NCBI GenBank assembly: GCA_964636215.1
Contig: CAZWRJ010000003.1
Span: 6,743-70,742, forward strand
Length of the DNA: 64,000 bases
Source of the DNA: an uncultured Candidatus Saccharibacteria bacterium
GTDB lineage: Bacteria > Patescibacteriota > Saccharimonadia > Saccharimonadales > CAZJQT01
Direction of reading: 5' to 3'
Position 1 is the stretch's first letter. The number at the start of each line of letters is the position of its first letter. Both the position numbers and the translations under genes were made by a program. This document shows, in pieces, positions 1,262-6,018 of this stretch. The notes beneath the pieces are model-generated. The model was not told the DNA's origin and made no database searches. It was given only the letters and a program-made list of their open reading frames with translations.

Positions 1262-3547
1262 ATGGCGAAAAACCTAGTTATTGTTGAGAGCCCCGCCAAA
1301 GCCAAAACTATTGAGAAATTTTTAGGTAGCGCTTACACGGTTAAGAGCAGCTTTGGACATGTCCGTGACTTGCCTAAGAAGGGCCTCAATATTGATATTG
1401 AAAAACACTTTGAACCAACTTATGCGGTGTCGCCTGATAAGGAAAAGGTTATCAGGGAGCTGAAGACTGCAGCCAAGGGTGCCACTGTCTGGCTGGCAAG
1501 TGATGAAGACCGCGAAGGCGAGGCTATAGCCTGGCATCTTTGCGAAGCCCTGAATCTAAGTCCTAAGGTCACTAAACGAATTGTTTTCCATGAAATTACC
1601 AAAACGGCTATAGATCGAGCTGTAGCCAACCCCAGAACTGTCGATATGCGTTTAGTGGATGCTCAGCAAGCCCGACGAATTTTAGACCGTTTGGTAGGTT
1701 ACGAACTAAGTCCGGTGCTTTGGAAAAAGGTTAGAACCGGTCTGAGCGCCGGCAGGGTACAGTCGGTAGCTGTTCGTCTGATTGTCGAGAGAGAACGAGA
1801 AATCAAAGATTTTAAGGCTGAGGTTTCTTTCAAGGTAATCGGCAGTTTTAAGGCTGGCTCTGATGAGTTTGAGGCAGAGCTGGATAGTCGATTCAAAGAC
1901 GTCGCCAGGACCAAGGATTTTCTGAATGCGGCCGCTAAAGCCACTTTTACAGTTAAGGGTATTGAACAAAAGCCCGCTACTCGCAGCCCTGGTCCGCCGT
2001 TTACTACTAGTAGTCTGCAACAAGAAGCTGCTAGGCGACTGGGATTCAGCGTTAAACAAACTATGTCCTTAGCTCAGAGGCTTTATGAAAGTGGTCATAT
2101 TACCTATATGCGCACTGACAGTCTAACGCTGTCTAACCTAGCTCTAGATGCTGCAGCCAAATACATCGAGAAGACTTTTGGGGCAAACTATCATCAAACC
2201 AGACAATACAAAACTAAGGACGCTAGTGCTCAAGAAGCTCATGAAGCCATTCGACCGACACATTTCGATAAACTAAAGGCGGGTGGTGACGAGCAACAGA
2301 GTAAGTTATATGAGCTGGTTTGGCAGCGAACGGTAGCCAGCCAGATGGCTGATGCCAAGGTTGATCGTACTGAAATAGGCATAGTTGTTAGCAATCGCTC
2401 CGAGCTGTTCGTTGCTAAGGGCGAGGTGCTGCGTTTTGATGGCTTCTTCAAAGTCTATGGTGGTGGCAAAGACGACGTTATCTTGCCTACACTCAAAGAA
2501 GGTCAGAAGCTCGATCTCAAATTAATGACTGGGCTTCAGACTTTTAGCCGTCCACCAGCGCGTTATTCGGAAGCCAGCCTAGTTAAGAAGTTAGAAGAAT
2601 TAGGTATTGGCCGGCCTAGTACTTATGCGCCAACAATTTCAACTATTCAAACCCGCGGTTATGTCGAGAAAGGTGACTTGGAAGGTCAGACCCGACAAGT
2701 TACCAAATTAGAGTTAAAATCCGGGAAAATTAGCGAGTCCGAAACCACTGAGACTTATGGCGCTGACCGAAGTAAATTACTGCCTACACCAGTAGCTGAG
2801 ATAACAACTGACTTTTTGGTCAAATATTTCGGTTCAATACTGGACTATGATTTTACGGCCAAAGCAGAGCTAGATTTAGATGCCATAGCTGAGGGCAAGG
2901 AGTCTCGTGAACGCATGCTCAGTGATTTTTATAAACATTTTCATCCTTTAATAAAGAAGTCAGAGTCAGTTAGTCGAGAAGAGACCAGTCAAGCTAGACA
3001 TCTAGGCAAAGACCCAGGATCTGGTAAGCCAGTCATTGCTCGCTTTGGTCGCTACGGACCGATGTTACAGCGCGGTGAAACCGAGAGCGAAGAAAAGCCA
3101 GACTTCGCGCCATTGCCAGAAGGCACTACTCTGGAAGACGTTAATCTTTCTCAAGCACTAGAAATGTTCAAACTACCAAGGGTGGTGGGACAGACTGTTG
3201 ACGGACAAGAGATTCAGGCTAATATTGGACGATTCGGGCCTTATATCCAAGTCGACAAGCTTTTTGTGTCAATTAAACCTCAAGACCCTATGAAAATAAC
3301 CGAGAAAGAGGCTAGGACACTCTATAAGGCCAAGCTTAAGAAAGAAGCTGAAAAGCACATCCAGACTTTTGATAGTGGCCTACAGGTGCTGAATGGTCCT
3401 TATGGGCCATATGTTAGCGATGGCAAGCGCAATGCCCGTATACCTAAAGAACAAGATCCTAAGAAATTGACTGAAAAGGCGGCCCAAAAGCTGCTTGATG
3501 AAGCCCCAACGACTAAACGGTTTTTCCGTAAGAAAACTGCCTCTTGA
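1262..3547 (+). CDS. topA: DNA topoisomerase I
   Basis: N-terminal TOPRIM (LVIVESPAKAKTI...), RLVGYELSPVLWKK, and length typical of topoisomerase IA. Confidence 0.95.
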   Translation: MAKNLVIVESPAKAKTIEKFLGSAYTVKSSFGHVRDLPKKGLNIDIEKHFEPTYAVSPDKEKVIRELKTAAKGATVWLASDEDREGEAIAWHLCEALNLSPKVTKRIVFHEITKTAIDRAVANPRTVDMRLVDAQQARRILDRLVGYELSPVLWKKVRTGLSAGRVQSVAVRLIVEREREIKDFKAEVSFKVIGSFKAGSDEFEAELDSRFKDVARTKDFLNAAAKATFTVKGIEQKPATRSPGPPFTTSSLQQEAARRLGFSVKQTMSLAQRLYESGHITYMRTDSLTLSNLALDAAAKYIEKTFGANYHQTRQYKTKDASAQEAHEAIRPTHFDKLKAGGDEQQSKLYELVWQRTVASQMADAKVDRTEIGIVVSNRSELFVAKGEVLRFDGFFKVYGGGKDDVILPTLKEGQKLDLKLMTGLQTFSRPPARYSEASLVKKLEELGIGRPSTYAPTISTIQTRGYVEKGDLEGQTRQVTKLELKSGKISESETTETYGADRSKLLPTPVAEITTDFLVKYFGSILDYDFTAKAELDLDAIAEGKESRERMLSDFYKHFHPLIKKSESVSREETSQARHLGKDPGSGKPVIARFGRYGPMLQRGETESEEKPDFAPLPEGTTLEDVNLSQALEMFKLPRVVGQTVDGQEIQANIGRFGPYIQVDKLFVSIKPQDPMKITEKEARTLYKAKLKKEAEKHIQTFDSGLQVLNGPYGPYVSDGKRNARIPKEQDPKKLTEKAAQKLLDEAPTTKRFFRKKTAS

Positions 3548-3630
3548 CGATGTTTTAGAGTAGGTATATAACATTACCTAACATCGTGAGTATCAAGATT
3601 ATTCCGATGGCACTTTGACAGACAGGTAGC

Positions 3631-3680
3631 CATCAGATGAGATATGGGAGTTTTCAAGAACTTCCGCACCTCATCTGATG
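3631..3680. repeat. 11-bp perfect inverted repeat (catcagatgag / ctcatctgatg) with 28-nt spacer
   Basis: Seen directly in the sequence; it lies at the upstream edge of the high-GC island. Confidence 0.6.
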
Positions 3681-3699
3681 CAACGGAAGAGCGACAAAC

Positions 3700-4150
3700 A
3701 CGAGCATAAGACGGTCCCTCTCAAGGACTGGTGGGAAGCCACTGAGGATCAAGGTACACCGACGACAACGGGGGTTACCGCATGCACCGACAGCACACCG
3801 TCACGGCCACTCGCGCCGGCCCGGAGAACACGGGCTTCGCTGACACGGCCAAGTTCATCACGTCGACGGCCAAGAAGGTCTTCGCCACCAAGGTCACCTG
3901 AGCGTCGCCGACGCGTCCTCGTGACGACCCGCATTACCAACCACTAGGTACACCTGGAACCAGCATGATGGTGTGCCGACATGGTCCGTCCATAATCAGT
4001 GCAGCGGCCGGATGGCCAAAGCCTCGGGAGTAGGCCGTGAAGATGGCAGGCAGGTGGTCGTAGGCCAGTGACGGAACGGTTGCGTTTAGGGGCTGTACGC
4101 CCGCATCCCCAACGCCCACCCCGCGCTCAACCCTCAATCCTACCTGTCTG
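3700..4150. other. high-GC compositional island (~60-70 % GC against a mid-40s % background) with no full-length CDS
   Basis: Manual counts on two sub-stretches give 61 % and 72 % GC. Only short GC3-biased ORF fragments are present: the plus-strand 3782-3901 reads MHRQHTVTATRAGPENTGFADTAKFITSTAKKVFATKVT, and the minus-strand 3960-4075 reads ...LAYDHLPAIFTAYSRGFGHPAAALIMDGPCRH.... The track ORFs here are Arg/Pro/Ser low-complexity. Confidence 0.6.
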
Positions 4151-4154
4151 TCAT

Positions 4155-4209
4155 CTTCACTAAATGAGTGTGTACTCATTCTGATGAGTCTAAAAAGACG
4201 AAAGTGAAG
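4155..4209 (+). ncRNA. type III hammerhead self-cleaving ribozyme
   Basis: Stem III is CUUCAC/GUGAAG with U16.1 and A17 at the cleavage site; stem I is AAUGAGU-GUGU-ACUCAUU; the CUGAUGA core is intact. Stem II is GUCU-AAAA-AGAC with the G10.1-C11.1 pair, followed by GAAA and the stem III closure. Confidence 0.8.
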
Positions 4210-4330
4210 TCAAAAATATTGGTTTTCCACATCTTGCACGCCTGACAAGATATTTTATGGTGATATTTCTACACCATGTAATAGGCAAAGGTGTCTATTT
4301 CGTGCTAAAATAAAGTAGATCAAAAAGGTG

Positions 4331-4358
4331 TTGACTTTTTGTACATTTGTTTTACAAT
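4331..4358 (+). promoter_or_regulatory. sigma70-like promoter (TTGACT, 16-nt spacer, TACAAT)
   Basis: Near-consensus hexamers lie about 48 nt upstream of the ATG at 4406. Confidence 0.55.
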
Positions 4359-4405
4359 AGAGTTATCATTTGACTGTTATTAGAGAGCAGGGAAGGATAG
4401 ACCAG

Positions 4406-5443
4406 ATGGCCGAAACGGCTACAGCAGCATTACAGCTGGAAAAAATTGTTACAGACATACTCCGTACCATCGACAGAGAAAGGGAACGCGAGATTATTTC
4501 ACGTCGCTTCGGTTTATTCGATCGAAAGGAAACCCTAGAACAAATCGGGGAATTGTTAGGTATTACCCGTGAACGCGTCCGACAGCTGGAAAAAGCAGTA
4601 GTCGCCCGCCTGAAAGCTCAAGCTGACAGCGGTCAATTGCCACACCTTGGCGCAGTGCAAGACGCTTTTATTGAGAAGCTTGGCCAAATGGGCAGTGTCG
4701 CCCGAGTGGCTGACTTGAGTTCTAAATTCGCTAAGGAAAACAGTCGTACCGATCAATCTCGCACCTCTTTCCTAGCTCAACTATGCCCCAAACTAGTCAC
4801 CGTTGACGAGAACGATTATTATTACCACTCCACCGGCATTAAGGGCCTGCATGACGAGAAAGCTCTAAAACAACTGGTGGAAAAGTTGATTGAAGCTATT
4901 AAAGCGCTTGGTGAACCAGCCAAGATTGACGAAATTGCTGCTAAGGCCGGGCTTGACTCTAACCGTCACGCTGCTGCTTTGGCTAGTATTAGTAAACAGC
5001 TGGCAACTCTTAATGGTCGCTGGGGCTTAGTTAAGTGGCCAATGGTTAATCCTAAGAATATTCGTGACAAAATCTACGTCATACTTAAAGAACACGGCAA
5101 ACACATGCACTTCAATGAAATTGCCCAGGCTATTAAGAAAAGTGACTTTAAGCGTAACAATGTGACTACCCAGGCCATTCACAACGAACTCATTAAAGAC
5201 AAGCGTTTCGTACTAATCGGCCGGGGCATTTACGCTCTGAAGGAATGGGGTTACGAAAAGGGCACCGTAGCCGACATAATTACTGAGGTTCTTAAGAAGT
5301 CCAAACAACCAATGCACCGTGACGAAATTGTTAAGCAAGTGCTTAAGAGCCGCTACGTCAAAGAAACGACTATTTTGTTAAATCTACAAGGCAAGCCACA
5401 GTTCAAACGCGTTGCCAAAGCCACCTACGCCCTAGCAGAGTAA
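4406..5443 (+). CDS. sigma-70 region 4 HTH plus tandem HARE-HTH domain protein
   Basis: The N-terminus ETLEQIGELLGITRERVRQLEKAVVARLK is a sigma region 4 HTH. The C-terminus has two HARE-HTH-like units (...FVLIGRGIYALKEW / ...RVAKATYALAE). The track start at 4370 is a TTG; the ATG at 4406 follows GGGAAGGA. Confidence 0.7.
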   Translation: MAETATAALQLEKIVTDILRTIDREREREIISRRFGLFDRKETLEQIGELLGITRERVRQLEKAVVARLKAQADSGQLPHLGAVQDAFIEKLGQMGSVARVADLSSKFAKENSRTDQSRTSFLAQLCPKLVTVDENDYYYHSTGIKGLHDEKALKQLVEKLIEAIKALGEPAKIDEIAAKAGLDSNRHAAALASISKQLATLNGRWGLVKWPMVNPKNIRDKIYVILKEHGKHMHFNEIAQAIKKSDFKRNNVTTQAIHNELIKDKRFVLIGRGIYALKEWGYEKGTVADIITEVLKKSKQPMHRDEIVKQVLKSRYVKETTILLNLQGKPQFKRVAKATYALAE

Positions 5444-5454
5444 TTAACATCTTT

Positions 5455-6018
5455 ATGTCAGAAATTGGGCACTTGCCTGAACAAGAAGCCAAAAGAGAAG
5501 TTTTTTTGGCTGAGCTTACAGCTTTTATTATTGAAGCAGGTCAGAATGGCTGGGCTGCTGGAGCACCAAAAATAGAAAATCCGCAGAGACCTGGGTTTAA
5601 AGAGTTAACTTATCAGAGTGAGAATGGCGACTGGGAGTATCGAGACAGTTATGCCGGCTATTATATGGCACCTGGATCTTCTGTAGTTTATTTTAGGGAA
5701 CGCCCCGTTTGGTATATGACCTACGGTGGAGAAGGTCAGTTGCCAGAATTTTACGATCAAGCAAAAGAAACTTATGCTTTTCTAAGGCGGGCCCTTATGG
5801 AGCCAGATCTTCGCTTTCCCGTCCGAGGTCCTTTAGTCCACAGAGAAGATAATGATAGAAGATTATACTGGTTTGATTTTAATGGCGATCTTGAACAAGG
5901 CAGCTGGACAGAATCAGTATTATTTGATCATGTTAGGATATTTGGGCAAAGGGGGGATGTTGGCTTGATAATTGATAAGGGTAAAAATAGAGATCCTTTG
6001 TTTCCTTGGGACTTATAA
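5455..6018 (+). CDS. hypothetical protein (DUF5680-like?)
   Basis: A 187-aa ORF lies 12 nt after the preceding gene and shows coding-like composition; the family call is tentative. Confidence 0.55.
   Translation: MSEIGHLPEQEAKREVFLAELTAFIIEAGQNGWAAGAPKIENPQRPGFKELTYQSENGDWEYRDSYAGYYMAPGSSVVYFRERPVWYMTYGGEGQLPEFYDQAKETYAFLRRALMEPDLRFPVRGPLVHREDNDRRLYWFDFNGDLEQGSWTESVLFDHVRIFGQRGDVGLIIDKGKNRDPLFPWDL

Follow-up and report, generated by a model that had tools for sequence, protein, structure and literature searches.

What is a sharply GC-rich segment doing between two conserved genes of a Saccharibacteria genome? The segment in question occupies positions 3700 to 4150 of a 64,000-nucleotide (nt) stretch of DNA from an uncultured Candidatus Saccharibacteria bacterium (contig CAZWRJ010000003.1; the whole stretch is hereafter called the window) and lies between topA and a gene for a sigma-like protein. 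It was 62.3% GC, versus 43.6% across the whole window, and was unique in it: the richest 300 nt (3769 to 4068) reached 63.7% GC, 5.4 standard deviations (SD) over the window mean, with the runner-up 300-nt stretch at 54.7%. The 60-nt maximum was 73% (3791 to 3850), so the two sub-stretches that an earlier note on this DNA had put at 61% and 72% GC are real. That note saw no credible coding sequence here and offered three explanations: debris from a high-GC donor, a structured RNA cut by an adjoining ribozyme, or an assembly chimera. Our analysis points elsewhere: the island is probably the payload, variable from copy to copy, of a self-contained mRNA cassette that has been inserted downstream of topA, ahead of the next gene.

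This reading is carried by a series of RNA elements on both sides of the island, in the order 5' module, 5' arm, cargo, a 3' untranslated region (UTR) element that we call the mimic, 3' arm, and type III hammerhead ribozyme, all on the plus strand. The 5' arm (TGACAGACAGGTAG, 3616 to 3629) and the 3' arm (CTACCTGTCTGTCA, 4140 to 4153) pair at 14 of 14 positions, a perfect inverted repeat that encloses the island (about 510 bp). Within the conserved 5' module (3578 to 3693), the 5' arm is preceded by a leader hairpin (3582 to 3609) and followed by a main hairpin (CATCAGATGAG...CTCATCTGATG, 3631 to 3680) with 22-nt arms, supported by the family alignment. A covariance model of the module (R2), built from 13 cassettes, recovered the window copy at 81.6 bits (E = 2e-19) as the only one in the window. 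Leader hairpin, UUGACA arm, and AGAUGAG/CUCAUCU hairpin, which together are the 5' hallmark of the cassette family, are all present here, as is its 3' hallmark, a 3' arm that ends in UGUCA directly before the ribozyme and is complementary to the 5' arm.

The ribozyme that the earlier note had placed next to the island was recognized by two models. Rfam Hammerhead_3 (RF00008) scored 41.7 bits (E = 3e-7) at 4155 to 4209, short of its gathering score of 48.5, and a family-specific covariance model (R1) scored 86.5 bits over 4137 to 4212, its single occurrence in the window. The core is complete (CUGAUGAG...CGAAA): it has CUGAUGA, GAAA, a G10.1-C11.1 pair, and an N-U-H cleavage triplet, is surrounded by three helices with stem III open, and shows CUA/A at 4160 to 4163, the slash marking the predicted cleavage between 4162 and 4163 (that is, between CUUCACUA and A). 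In the hammerhead family alignment of 11 members, 95.7% of cells were paired and 12 of 17 pairs showed compensatory changes on both sides, with none of 500 shuffles as good. In the arms of the 13 cassettes, 88.5% of cells pair and 7 of the 14 pairs have changed on both sides; the main 5' hairpin alignment has compensatory changes in 17 of its 21 pairs. All three helices thus keep their pairing through compensatory change. We rejected the idea of a further hammerhead at the 5' end (CUCAUCUGAUGC...), where both GAAA and stem II are missing and cleavage at AUC would need a stem III strand that is absent.

Inside the GC-rich segment, the mimic (GTGAAGATGGCAGGCAGGTGG, 4037 to 4057) is an imperfect copy of the stem III 3' strand plus the 5' arm. 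It can pair with 4140 to 4160, that is, with the 3' arm plus the 5' strand of stem III, over 21 bp that include three G-U pairs (predicted dG of -38.6). The region from 3600 to 4215 is predicted to fold better than its shuffles (z = -4.8), and much of this excess in fold energy stems from the arms and the mimic helix. The island extends from about 3660 to about 4140, and GC content falls to 33 to 38% within the hammerhead.

By position, the cassette is an insertion. The downstream sigma-like protein, used as a query, retrieved 80 Saccharibacteria loci (loci from this and other searches are cited below by L numbers), and the order of topA and the sigma-like gene was kept in more than 70 of them. 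In about half of the loci the spacer between the two genes was 170 to 290 nt, which we take as the empty site; in the rest it was 430 to more than 1300 nt. The short spacers have a conserved TTATCCACA block directly after the topA stop codon, followed by the promoter of the downstream gene, and the roughly 670 extra nt of the window fall exactly between the topA stop codon and this block; they are therefore an insertion relative to most relatives. What the empty sites lack is the whole unit and not merely the part between the arms. In the window, the neighbors are topA itself at 1262 to 3547, whose identification in the earlier note was borne out by Pfam (Topoisom_bac and Toprim), and, at 4406 to 5443, the sigma-like gene, whose product has Sigma70_r4 and HARE-HTH domains. 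Look-ups for an identical protein returned no record for topA, for the downstream gene, or for protein P0002 (see below).

Other cassettes occupy the same site. L020, L022, and L025 all have a TTGACA arm, a hairpin, variable cargo, and a complementary arm ending in TGTCA; a hammerhead follows in L020 and L025, and L022 has an intrinsic terminator in its place. L063 has the 5' module, arms, and mimic and lacks the hammerhead. At L038, the insert ends in a hammerhead, and neither a matching 5' arm nor a 5' module was found. L022 resembles the window in layout, with an open reading frame (ORF) of 38 amino acids (aa) and 133 nt to the mimic, although the two sequences are unalignable: alignment scores of the window cargo against those of L022 and L025 lay within the shuffle range, and the small peptides of the window and L022 had no BLASTP match.

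Some further features of this neighborhood were observed. Between the insertion and the sigma-like gene, positions 4221 to 4405 (about 180 nt upstream of the Sigma70_r4/HARE-HTH gene) are conserved across most Saccharibacteria loci; this segment begins with the DnaA-box-like TTATCCACA block (in the window, TTTTCCACA), includes gtctatttcgtgctaaaata, and holds a promoter, TTGACT-16-TACAAT (4331 to 4358). A regulatory leader or a small RNA may be encoded here. Upstream of topA, L037 (1 to 1760) has a hammerhead followed by two tandem cassettes, each with a 5' module, one or more ORFs, a mimic, and a 3' arm, and each ending in ...TTGTC(A)TTNCCCATGCT with no hammerhead. Additional type III hammerheads occur at a distance of a few hundred nt from topA, on its upstream side, in L051 (2187 to 2260), L023 (2201 to 2272), L036 (2232 to 2307), and L020 (270 to 359 and 1234 to 1312), most of them without a TGTCA arm. 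The surroundings of topA look like a general hot spot for hammerhead-ended inserts.

The same chassis was found in about 20 other places in genomes of the candidate phyla radiation (CPR), in differing genomic contexts. A search of metagenome contigs with a pattern of 3' arm plus hammerhead gave 11 true matches; among 2.9 million viral contigs there was none. The 11 matches share a TTGACA-17-TATAAT promoter, a leader hairpin, the 5' arm UUGACAAGCAG, a hairpin, a Shine-Dalgarno sequence, and an ORF of 93 to 240 aa, followed by a 3' UTR, the 3' arm CUGCUUGUCAU, and a hammerhead. Their neighbors are ordinary chromosomal genes: recR/cysS, a Mur-ligase-like ORF, rpoB/clpP, dnaG/rpoD, and hisS. Mimic-type helices of 21 to 24 bp with one to six G-U pairs were present in L088, L090, L097, L098, L102, and L104; they reach up to the cleavage site, whereas the arm helices are 11 to 15 bp long and nearly purely Watson-Crick. 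A search with the pattern ATCAGATGAG..CTCATCTGAT gave five viral matches, which we rejected as chance palindromes with neither arm nor ribozyme; combined with a TTGACA arm, this pattern had no metagenome match.

Across the family, the cargo is what varies. Some nine cargo types were found, with no relationship among them, and in 9 of 10 cassettes the GC content at third codon positions (GC3) of the cargo exceeded that of the host. The cargo of L097 matched the Pfam family Tad4, a Thoeris inhibitor, at 6.5e-19 and also phrog_9822, and its homologues bear CPR names where they are named. Three of these homologues that were fetched (P0005, P0015, and P0016) all lie in a complete chassis in different contexts, with a gene GC content of 0.56 to 0.65 versus 0.41 to 0.52 for the locus; whole Tad4-type cassettes are 69 to 77% identical from the leader, where transcription is expected to start, to the end of the hammerhead, in unrelated contexts. 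In L102 (1 to 1864), IS1595-type and rve-type transposase genes lie directly upstream of the Tad4-type cassette. The cargo of L087 and L089 has a membrane anchor and a beta-rich domain and matches phrog_2316; a 64%-identical homologue (L105) retains the chassis, and distant homologues lack it. One of the latter, in L109 (1 to 1905), has no chassis and comes immediately after a gene that encodes Phage_min_cap2 and CdiA_C toxin domains. Since that position is the usual place of an immunity gene, a role as toxin-immunity protein is possible for cargo of the L087/L089 type.

Is there, then, a gene in the window copy? A plus-strand fragment of 39 codons, rich in GC3, had already been picked out by the earlier note at 3782 to 3901, and it proved to be an intact ORF (MHRQHTVTATRAGPENTGFADTAKFITSTAKKVFATKVT) from ATG to TGA, the candidate cargo product. 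Its GC content at the three codon positions is 0.49, 0.54, and 0.92, the last of these 13 SD away from host ORFs (mean GC3, 0.39; SD, 0.04). Its three-base periodicity is highly significant (Fisher p = 5e-6), was matched by none of 500 shuffles of the island, and is restricted to about 3750 to 3930. To say that no credible coding sequence exists was therefore too strong; the ORF is, however, an orphan with a weak ribosome-binding site (GGGGG, 7 nt upstream). The 39-aa peptide had no Pfam or PHROGs match, and among 1.84 billion protein representatives its only hit was one spurious tandem-repeat protein. The frame remains open past the TGA (3899) up to a TAG at 4031 to 4033, 3 nt before the mimic, a spacing equal to that between stop codon and mimic in other cassettes; the GC3 of this second part is only 0.53, and for that reason we do not rely on read-through of the TGA. 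On the minus strand, a GC3-rich signal does exist at 3960 to 4075, as had been noted, but it is weak (GC3, 0.71) and comes from an antisense frame that shares third positions with the plus-strand ORF. Public (NCBI) annotation places an 81-aa protein (P0002) on the minus strand at 3934 to 4179, its start codon within the hammerhead; the minus-strand translation matched nothing but this call among 5.8 billion proteins. As a consequence for annotation, P0002 is probably a spurious call in GC-rich sequence. Most likely the window cargo is a small orphan peptide gene of 39 aa, or the decayed remnant of a longer one, that would have arrived horizontally with or into the chassis. Its composition marks it as foreign; a foreign origin is possible, and the searches made turned up no donor.

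A putative promoter of the cassette, read from the sequence, consists of TTGACG (3544 to 3549), which overlaps the topA stop codon, a 17-nt spacer, and TATAAC (3567 to 3572). Its position matches that of TTGACA-17-TATAAT in other cassettes, and L022 has TTGACA-17-TATAAC. As no terminator separates the cassette from topA, transcription could instead read through from topA; by either route, about 3578 to 4209 would form one plus-strand transcription unit. The TTGACA of the 5' arm was considered as a -35 box and rejected, as other members have canonical promoters some 60 to 75 nt upstream and the arm lies within the conserved transcribed unit. Given those promoters, the arms must be transcribed.

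In several relatives, part of the leader is known from Rfam as RAGATH-10 (RF03147). In L087, L089, and L097, RAGATH-10 scored above its threshold of 41.2 bits (54.3, 51.5, and 45.5 bits, respectively) in the 5' UTR directly before the ORF, and L104 and L098 scored slightly under it. Its outer stem pairs CCUCAUCU with the Shine-Dalgarno region GGAUGAGG(AG) just before the start codon, enclosing three hairpins. In the relatives this anti-Shine-Dalgarno strand, CCUCAUCU, is also the 3' strand of the covarying main 5' hairpin, as it is of the window hairpin at 3631 to 3680; the two folds are therefore mutually exclusive. This double use of one strand, seen in L087 (region 5388 to 5556, minus strand) and its equivalents, suggests a translational on/off switch in the leader. 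As its name implies, RAGATH-10 accompanies a gene with a hammerhead after it, and so it is in L087, L089, and L097. The window cassette shares the rest of the RAGATH-10-bearing chassis, namely, the 5' module, arms, and hammerhead, and at 3660 to 3790 it is predicted to form a 5-bp CCUCA/UGAGG outer stem around three hairpins, with the ATG 32 nt further on.

Taken together, the parts suggest a mechanism. The cassette RNA, transcribed from about 3578 by its own promoter or by topA read-through, would be cut by the hammerhead after 4162, which would set its 3' end and split off the transcript of the downstream gene. With the 3' arm paired to the 5' arm, stem III would be free and the ribozyme active; with the 3' arm paired to the mimic, the 5' strand of stem III would also be covered and the ribozyme blocked. 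Such a two-state switch would make the formation of the 3' end, or the protection of that end once cut, depend on the state of the 5' UTR. We propose, from these predicted structures, that competition between arm and mimic may gate cleavage or shape the cut end. For the transcript from 3578 to 4212, the predicted energies of the two states are nearly equal (-241.4 kcal/mol for arms plus stem III and -239.9 kcal/mol for the mimic state), and when the 3' UTR is folded alone, in most members the mimic is predicted to capture the 3' arm together with the strand of stem III. The intrinsic terminator at the hammerhead position of L022 fits a role in 3'-end formation. More speculatively, and with little weight given to it, the whole could serve CPR bacteria as a portable expression chassis into which foreign conflict genes (anti-defense and immunity) are plugged, with a hammerhead that is a natural allosteric ribozyme: a decoy weakened by G-U pairs would keep it off until the 5'-UTR arm displaces the decoy, tying 3'-end formation to the state of the 5' end or to translation of the same mRNA. 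More remotely, the high-GC3 coding of the cargo could reflect use in, or origin from, the high-GC host of an epibiont.

Several observations weigh against a functional cassette in the window, or against parts of the model. The family hallmark of a Shine-Dalgarno sequence and an ORF of about 90 to 240 aa is absent, with only 39 aa encoded; the weak ribosome-binding site sits 32 nt past the Shine-Dalgarno-like GAGGA; the distance from stop codon to mimic is 135 nt, versus 1 to 25 nt in most cassettes (133 nt in L022); and positions 3000 to 5000 had no RAGATH-10 match at an E value of 1 or below. Given the short ORF, weak ribosome-binding site, distant mimic, and missing RAGATH-10 match, the window copy may be decaying; the cassette is atypical and may be either a small-peptide cassette or such a decaying copy. 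In addition, the putative -10 box lacks the invariant final T (a consensus promoter scan omits 3544 to 3572 because the last base is C), and the antisense frame is largely open, over 135 codons from 4179 to 3775 with a single stop. After cleavage, the predicted minimum free energy structure retains the arm pairing rather than the mimic hairpin. Finally, the two L037 cassettes and L063 keep arms and mimic without a hammerhead; since these and L022 are all hammerhead-less, the switch must also serve beyond the ribozyme.

Among the alternatives, the segment could be inert debris, a dead gene fragment from a high-GC donor (an actinobacterial host or its phage) lodged in a pre-existing chassis or hot spot with no protein expressed, an explanation that partly overlaps the cassette reading. 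A GC3 of 0.92, 13 SD off the host genes, is typical of high-GC genomes; periodicity covers only about 3750 to 3930; the ribosome-binding site is weak, RAGATH-10 is unmatched, and the antisense frame is open but for one stop; and L025, at the same site, carries GC-rich cargo without a convincing ORF. Yet the proposed actinobacterial source went unsupported, as neither strand's translation had a genuine homologue among 1.84 or 5.8 billion proteins and a DNA similarity search of phage and plasmid collections found no match to the island. The ORF is intact from ATG to stop and in the sense orientation of the cassette, and L022 repeats the layout in unalignable sequence. Precise complementarity links the mimic, which lies within the GC-rich sequence, to the 3' arm plus stem III, so this part of the island is under selection. 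On balance we consider plain debris unlikely. Somewhat less likely still is a noncoding cargo, in which the GC-rich segment of the window, L022, and L025 would itself function as an RNA, structured or antisense, that the hammerhead releases and the arms close. In its favor, 3600 to 4215 folds better than its shuffles, and three neighboring cassettes that share the ATCAGATGAG hairpin subtype have the highest GC content and no long ORF; but the fold-energy excess comes largely from the arms and mimic helix, the three cargos have no detectable common sequence, and periodicity as strong as that of 3782 to 3901 is unexpected in a noncoding RNA. No Rfam family fell in the island, either over the whole window at gathering threshold or over 3000 to 5000 at an E value of 1 or below, where the hammerhead was the only match, and ARAGORN found neither a tRNA nor a transfer-messenger RNA there. 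Of the explanations first suggested, the structured RNA cut by a ribozyme comes closest: the island does belong to an RNA whose 3' end the adjoining hammerhead would set, and base pairing ties it to both flanks. Because homologous cassettes have ORFs of 93 to 240 aa at this place, however, the island most likely represents payload plus 3' UTR in an mRNA cassette and not a dedicated structured RNA.

Elements acting at the level of DNA are improbable. The perfect 14-bp inverted repeat flanking some 510 bp could be the terminal repeats of an element like a miniature inverted-repeat transposable element or the sites at which an invertible switch recombines to flip the cargo; the site is an insertion hot spot, and IS1595 and rve transposase genes adjoin the L102 cassette. 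But leader and hammerhead lie outside the repeats and always travel along, the orientation of the cargo relative to the 5' hairpin is identical in every copy found, no target-site duplication is visible at the arms, and empty sites have lost the entire unit, not just the segment between the arms. The third, competing copy of the repeat, the mimic, is G-U-rich and therefore forms its helix only in sense RNA, which counts against a DNA-level repeat. Least likely by far is an assembly chimera joining a high-GC read set to a Saccharibacteria contig. The change in composition is abrupt and the genome is of metagenome type, yet the sequences on either side of the island are two halves of a single conserved chassis and can pair with each other across it, the mimic, GC-rich itself, has its complement outside the island in the AT-richer 3' arm and strand of the hammerhead, and the same design recurs in many independent assemblies.

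The cassette, as the preferred reading, can be compared with several known systems. Perreault et al. 2011 (PMC3088659) described hammerheads in prophages and mobile elements, where they flank individual accessory genes such as ardA, and proposed processing into single-gene mRNAs, for a purpose that they called unclear. As there, a self-cleaving hammerhead borders an accessory gene, and the cargo is of an anti-defense type (ardA there, Tad4-like here); in contrast, each cassette here has one hammerhead, at its 3' end, as well as a conserved 5' UTR and the design of arms and mimic, and lies among CPR housekeeping genes, with no prophage genes nearby and no match among the viral contigs. The expansion of the RAGATH name was confirmed (PMC11061315), and the literature searched, which did not include the 2015 RAGATH paper, held no mention of RAGATH-10, no link between hammerheads and CPR or Saccharibacteria, and no description of the long-range arms, of the G-U-rich mimic, or of a link to GC-rich foreign cargo or to Saccharibacteria. 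The cassette type had been catalogued only in part, as Rfam RAGATH-10.

Comparison with other single-gene units is instructive as well. The cassettes are like integron gene cassettes, which carry attC hairpins, in that diverse ORFs occur singly, each with an imperfect inverted repeat behind it, and at times in tandem (L037); here, however, the imperfections are G-U wobbles in the sense RNA and not the extrahelical bases of single-stranded DNA, and every unit has its own promoter-like site. Phage morons are extra genes with their own promoter and terminator and a deviant composition, located between conserved genes. Like them, the cassettes are autonomous single-gene units between two conserved genes, present or absent among relatives and deviant in composition; the window copy has the deviant composition, a 3' end predicted to be set by a ribozyme, and a promoter that is only a near-consensus match. 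Unlike morons, they reside in a nonphage location (the chromosomal synteny of topA and the sigma-like gene), end in a ribozyme, with a terminator only in L022, and consist of a conserved structured chassis that travels with different genes. Hammerheads in 3' UTRs are also known from the discontinuous hammerhead of mammalian Clec2 and from engineered ribozyme insulators, which likewise set an mRNA end and can control the mRNA level; the present ones differ in being bacterial and continuous type III and in having both a competing helix built in and a pairing partner far away in the 5' UTR.

Hundreds of bacterial hammerheads were found in 2011, and the question of what they do has been open since then; RAGATH motifs other than ribozymes are still unexplained. 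This locus unites a hammerhead, a RAGATH-10-type leader, long-range pairing between 5' and 3' ends, and a decoy helix in one mRNA architecture, which recurs with exchangeable cargo and so yields hypotheses that mutation can test. It also suggests a way in which CPR epibionts, with their reduced genomes, may gain and express compositionally foreign accessory genes, some of which resemble phage anti-defense and toxin-immunity proteins.
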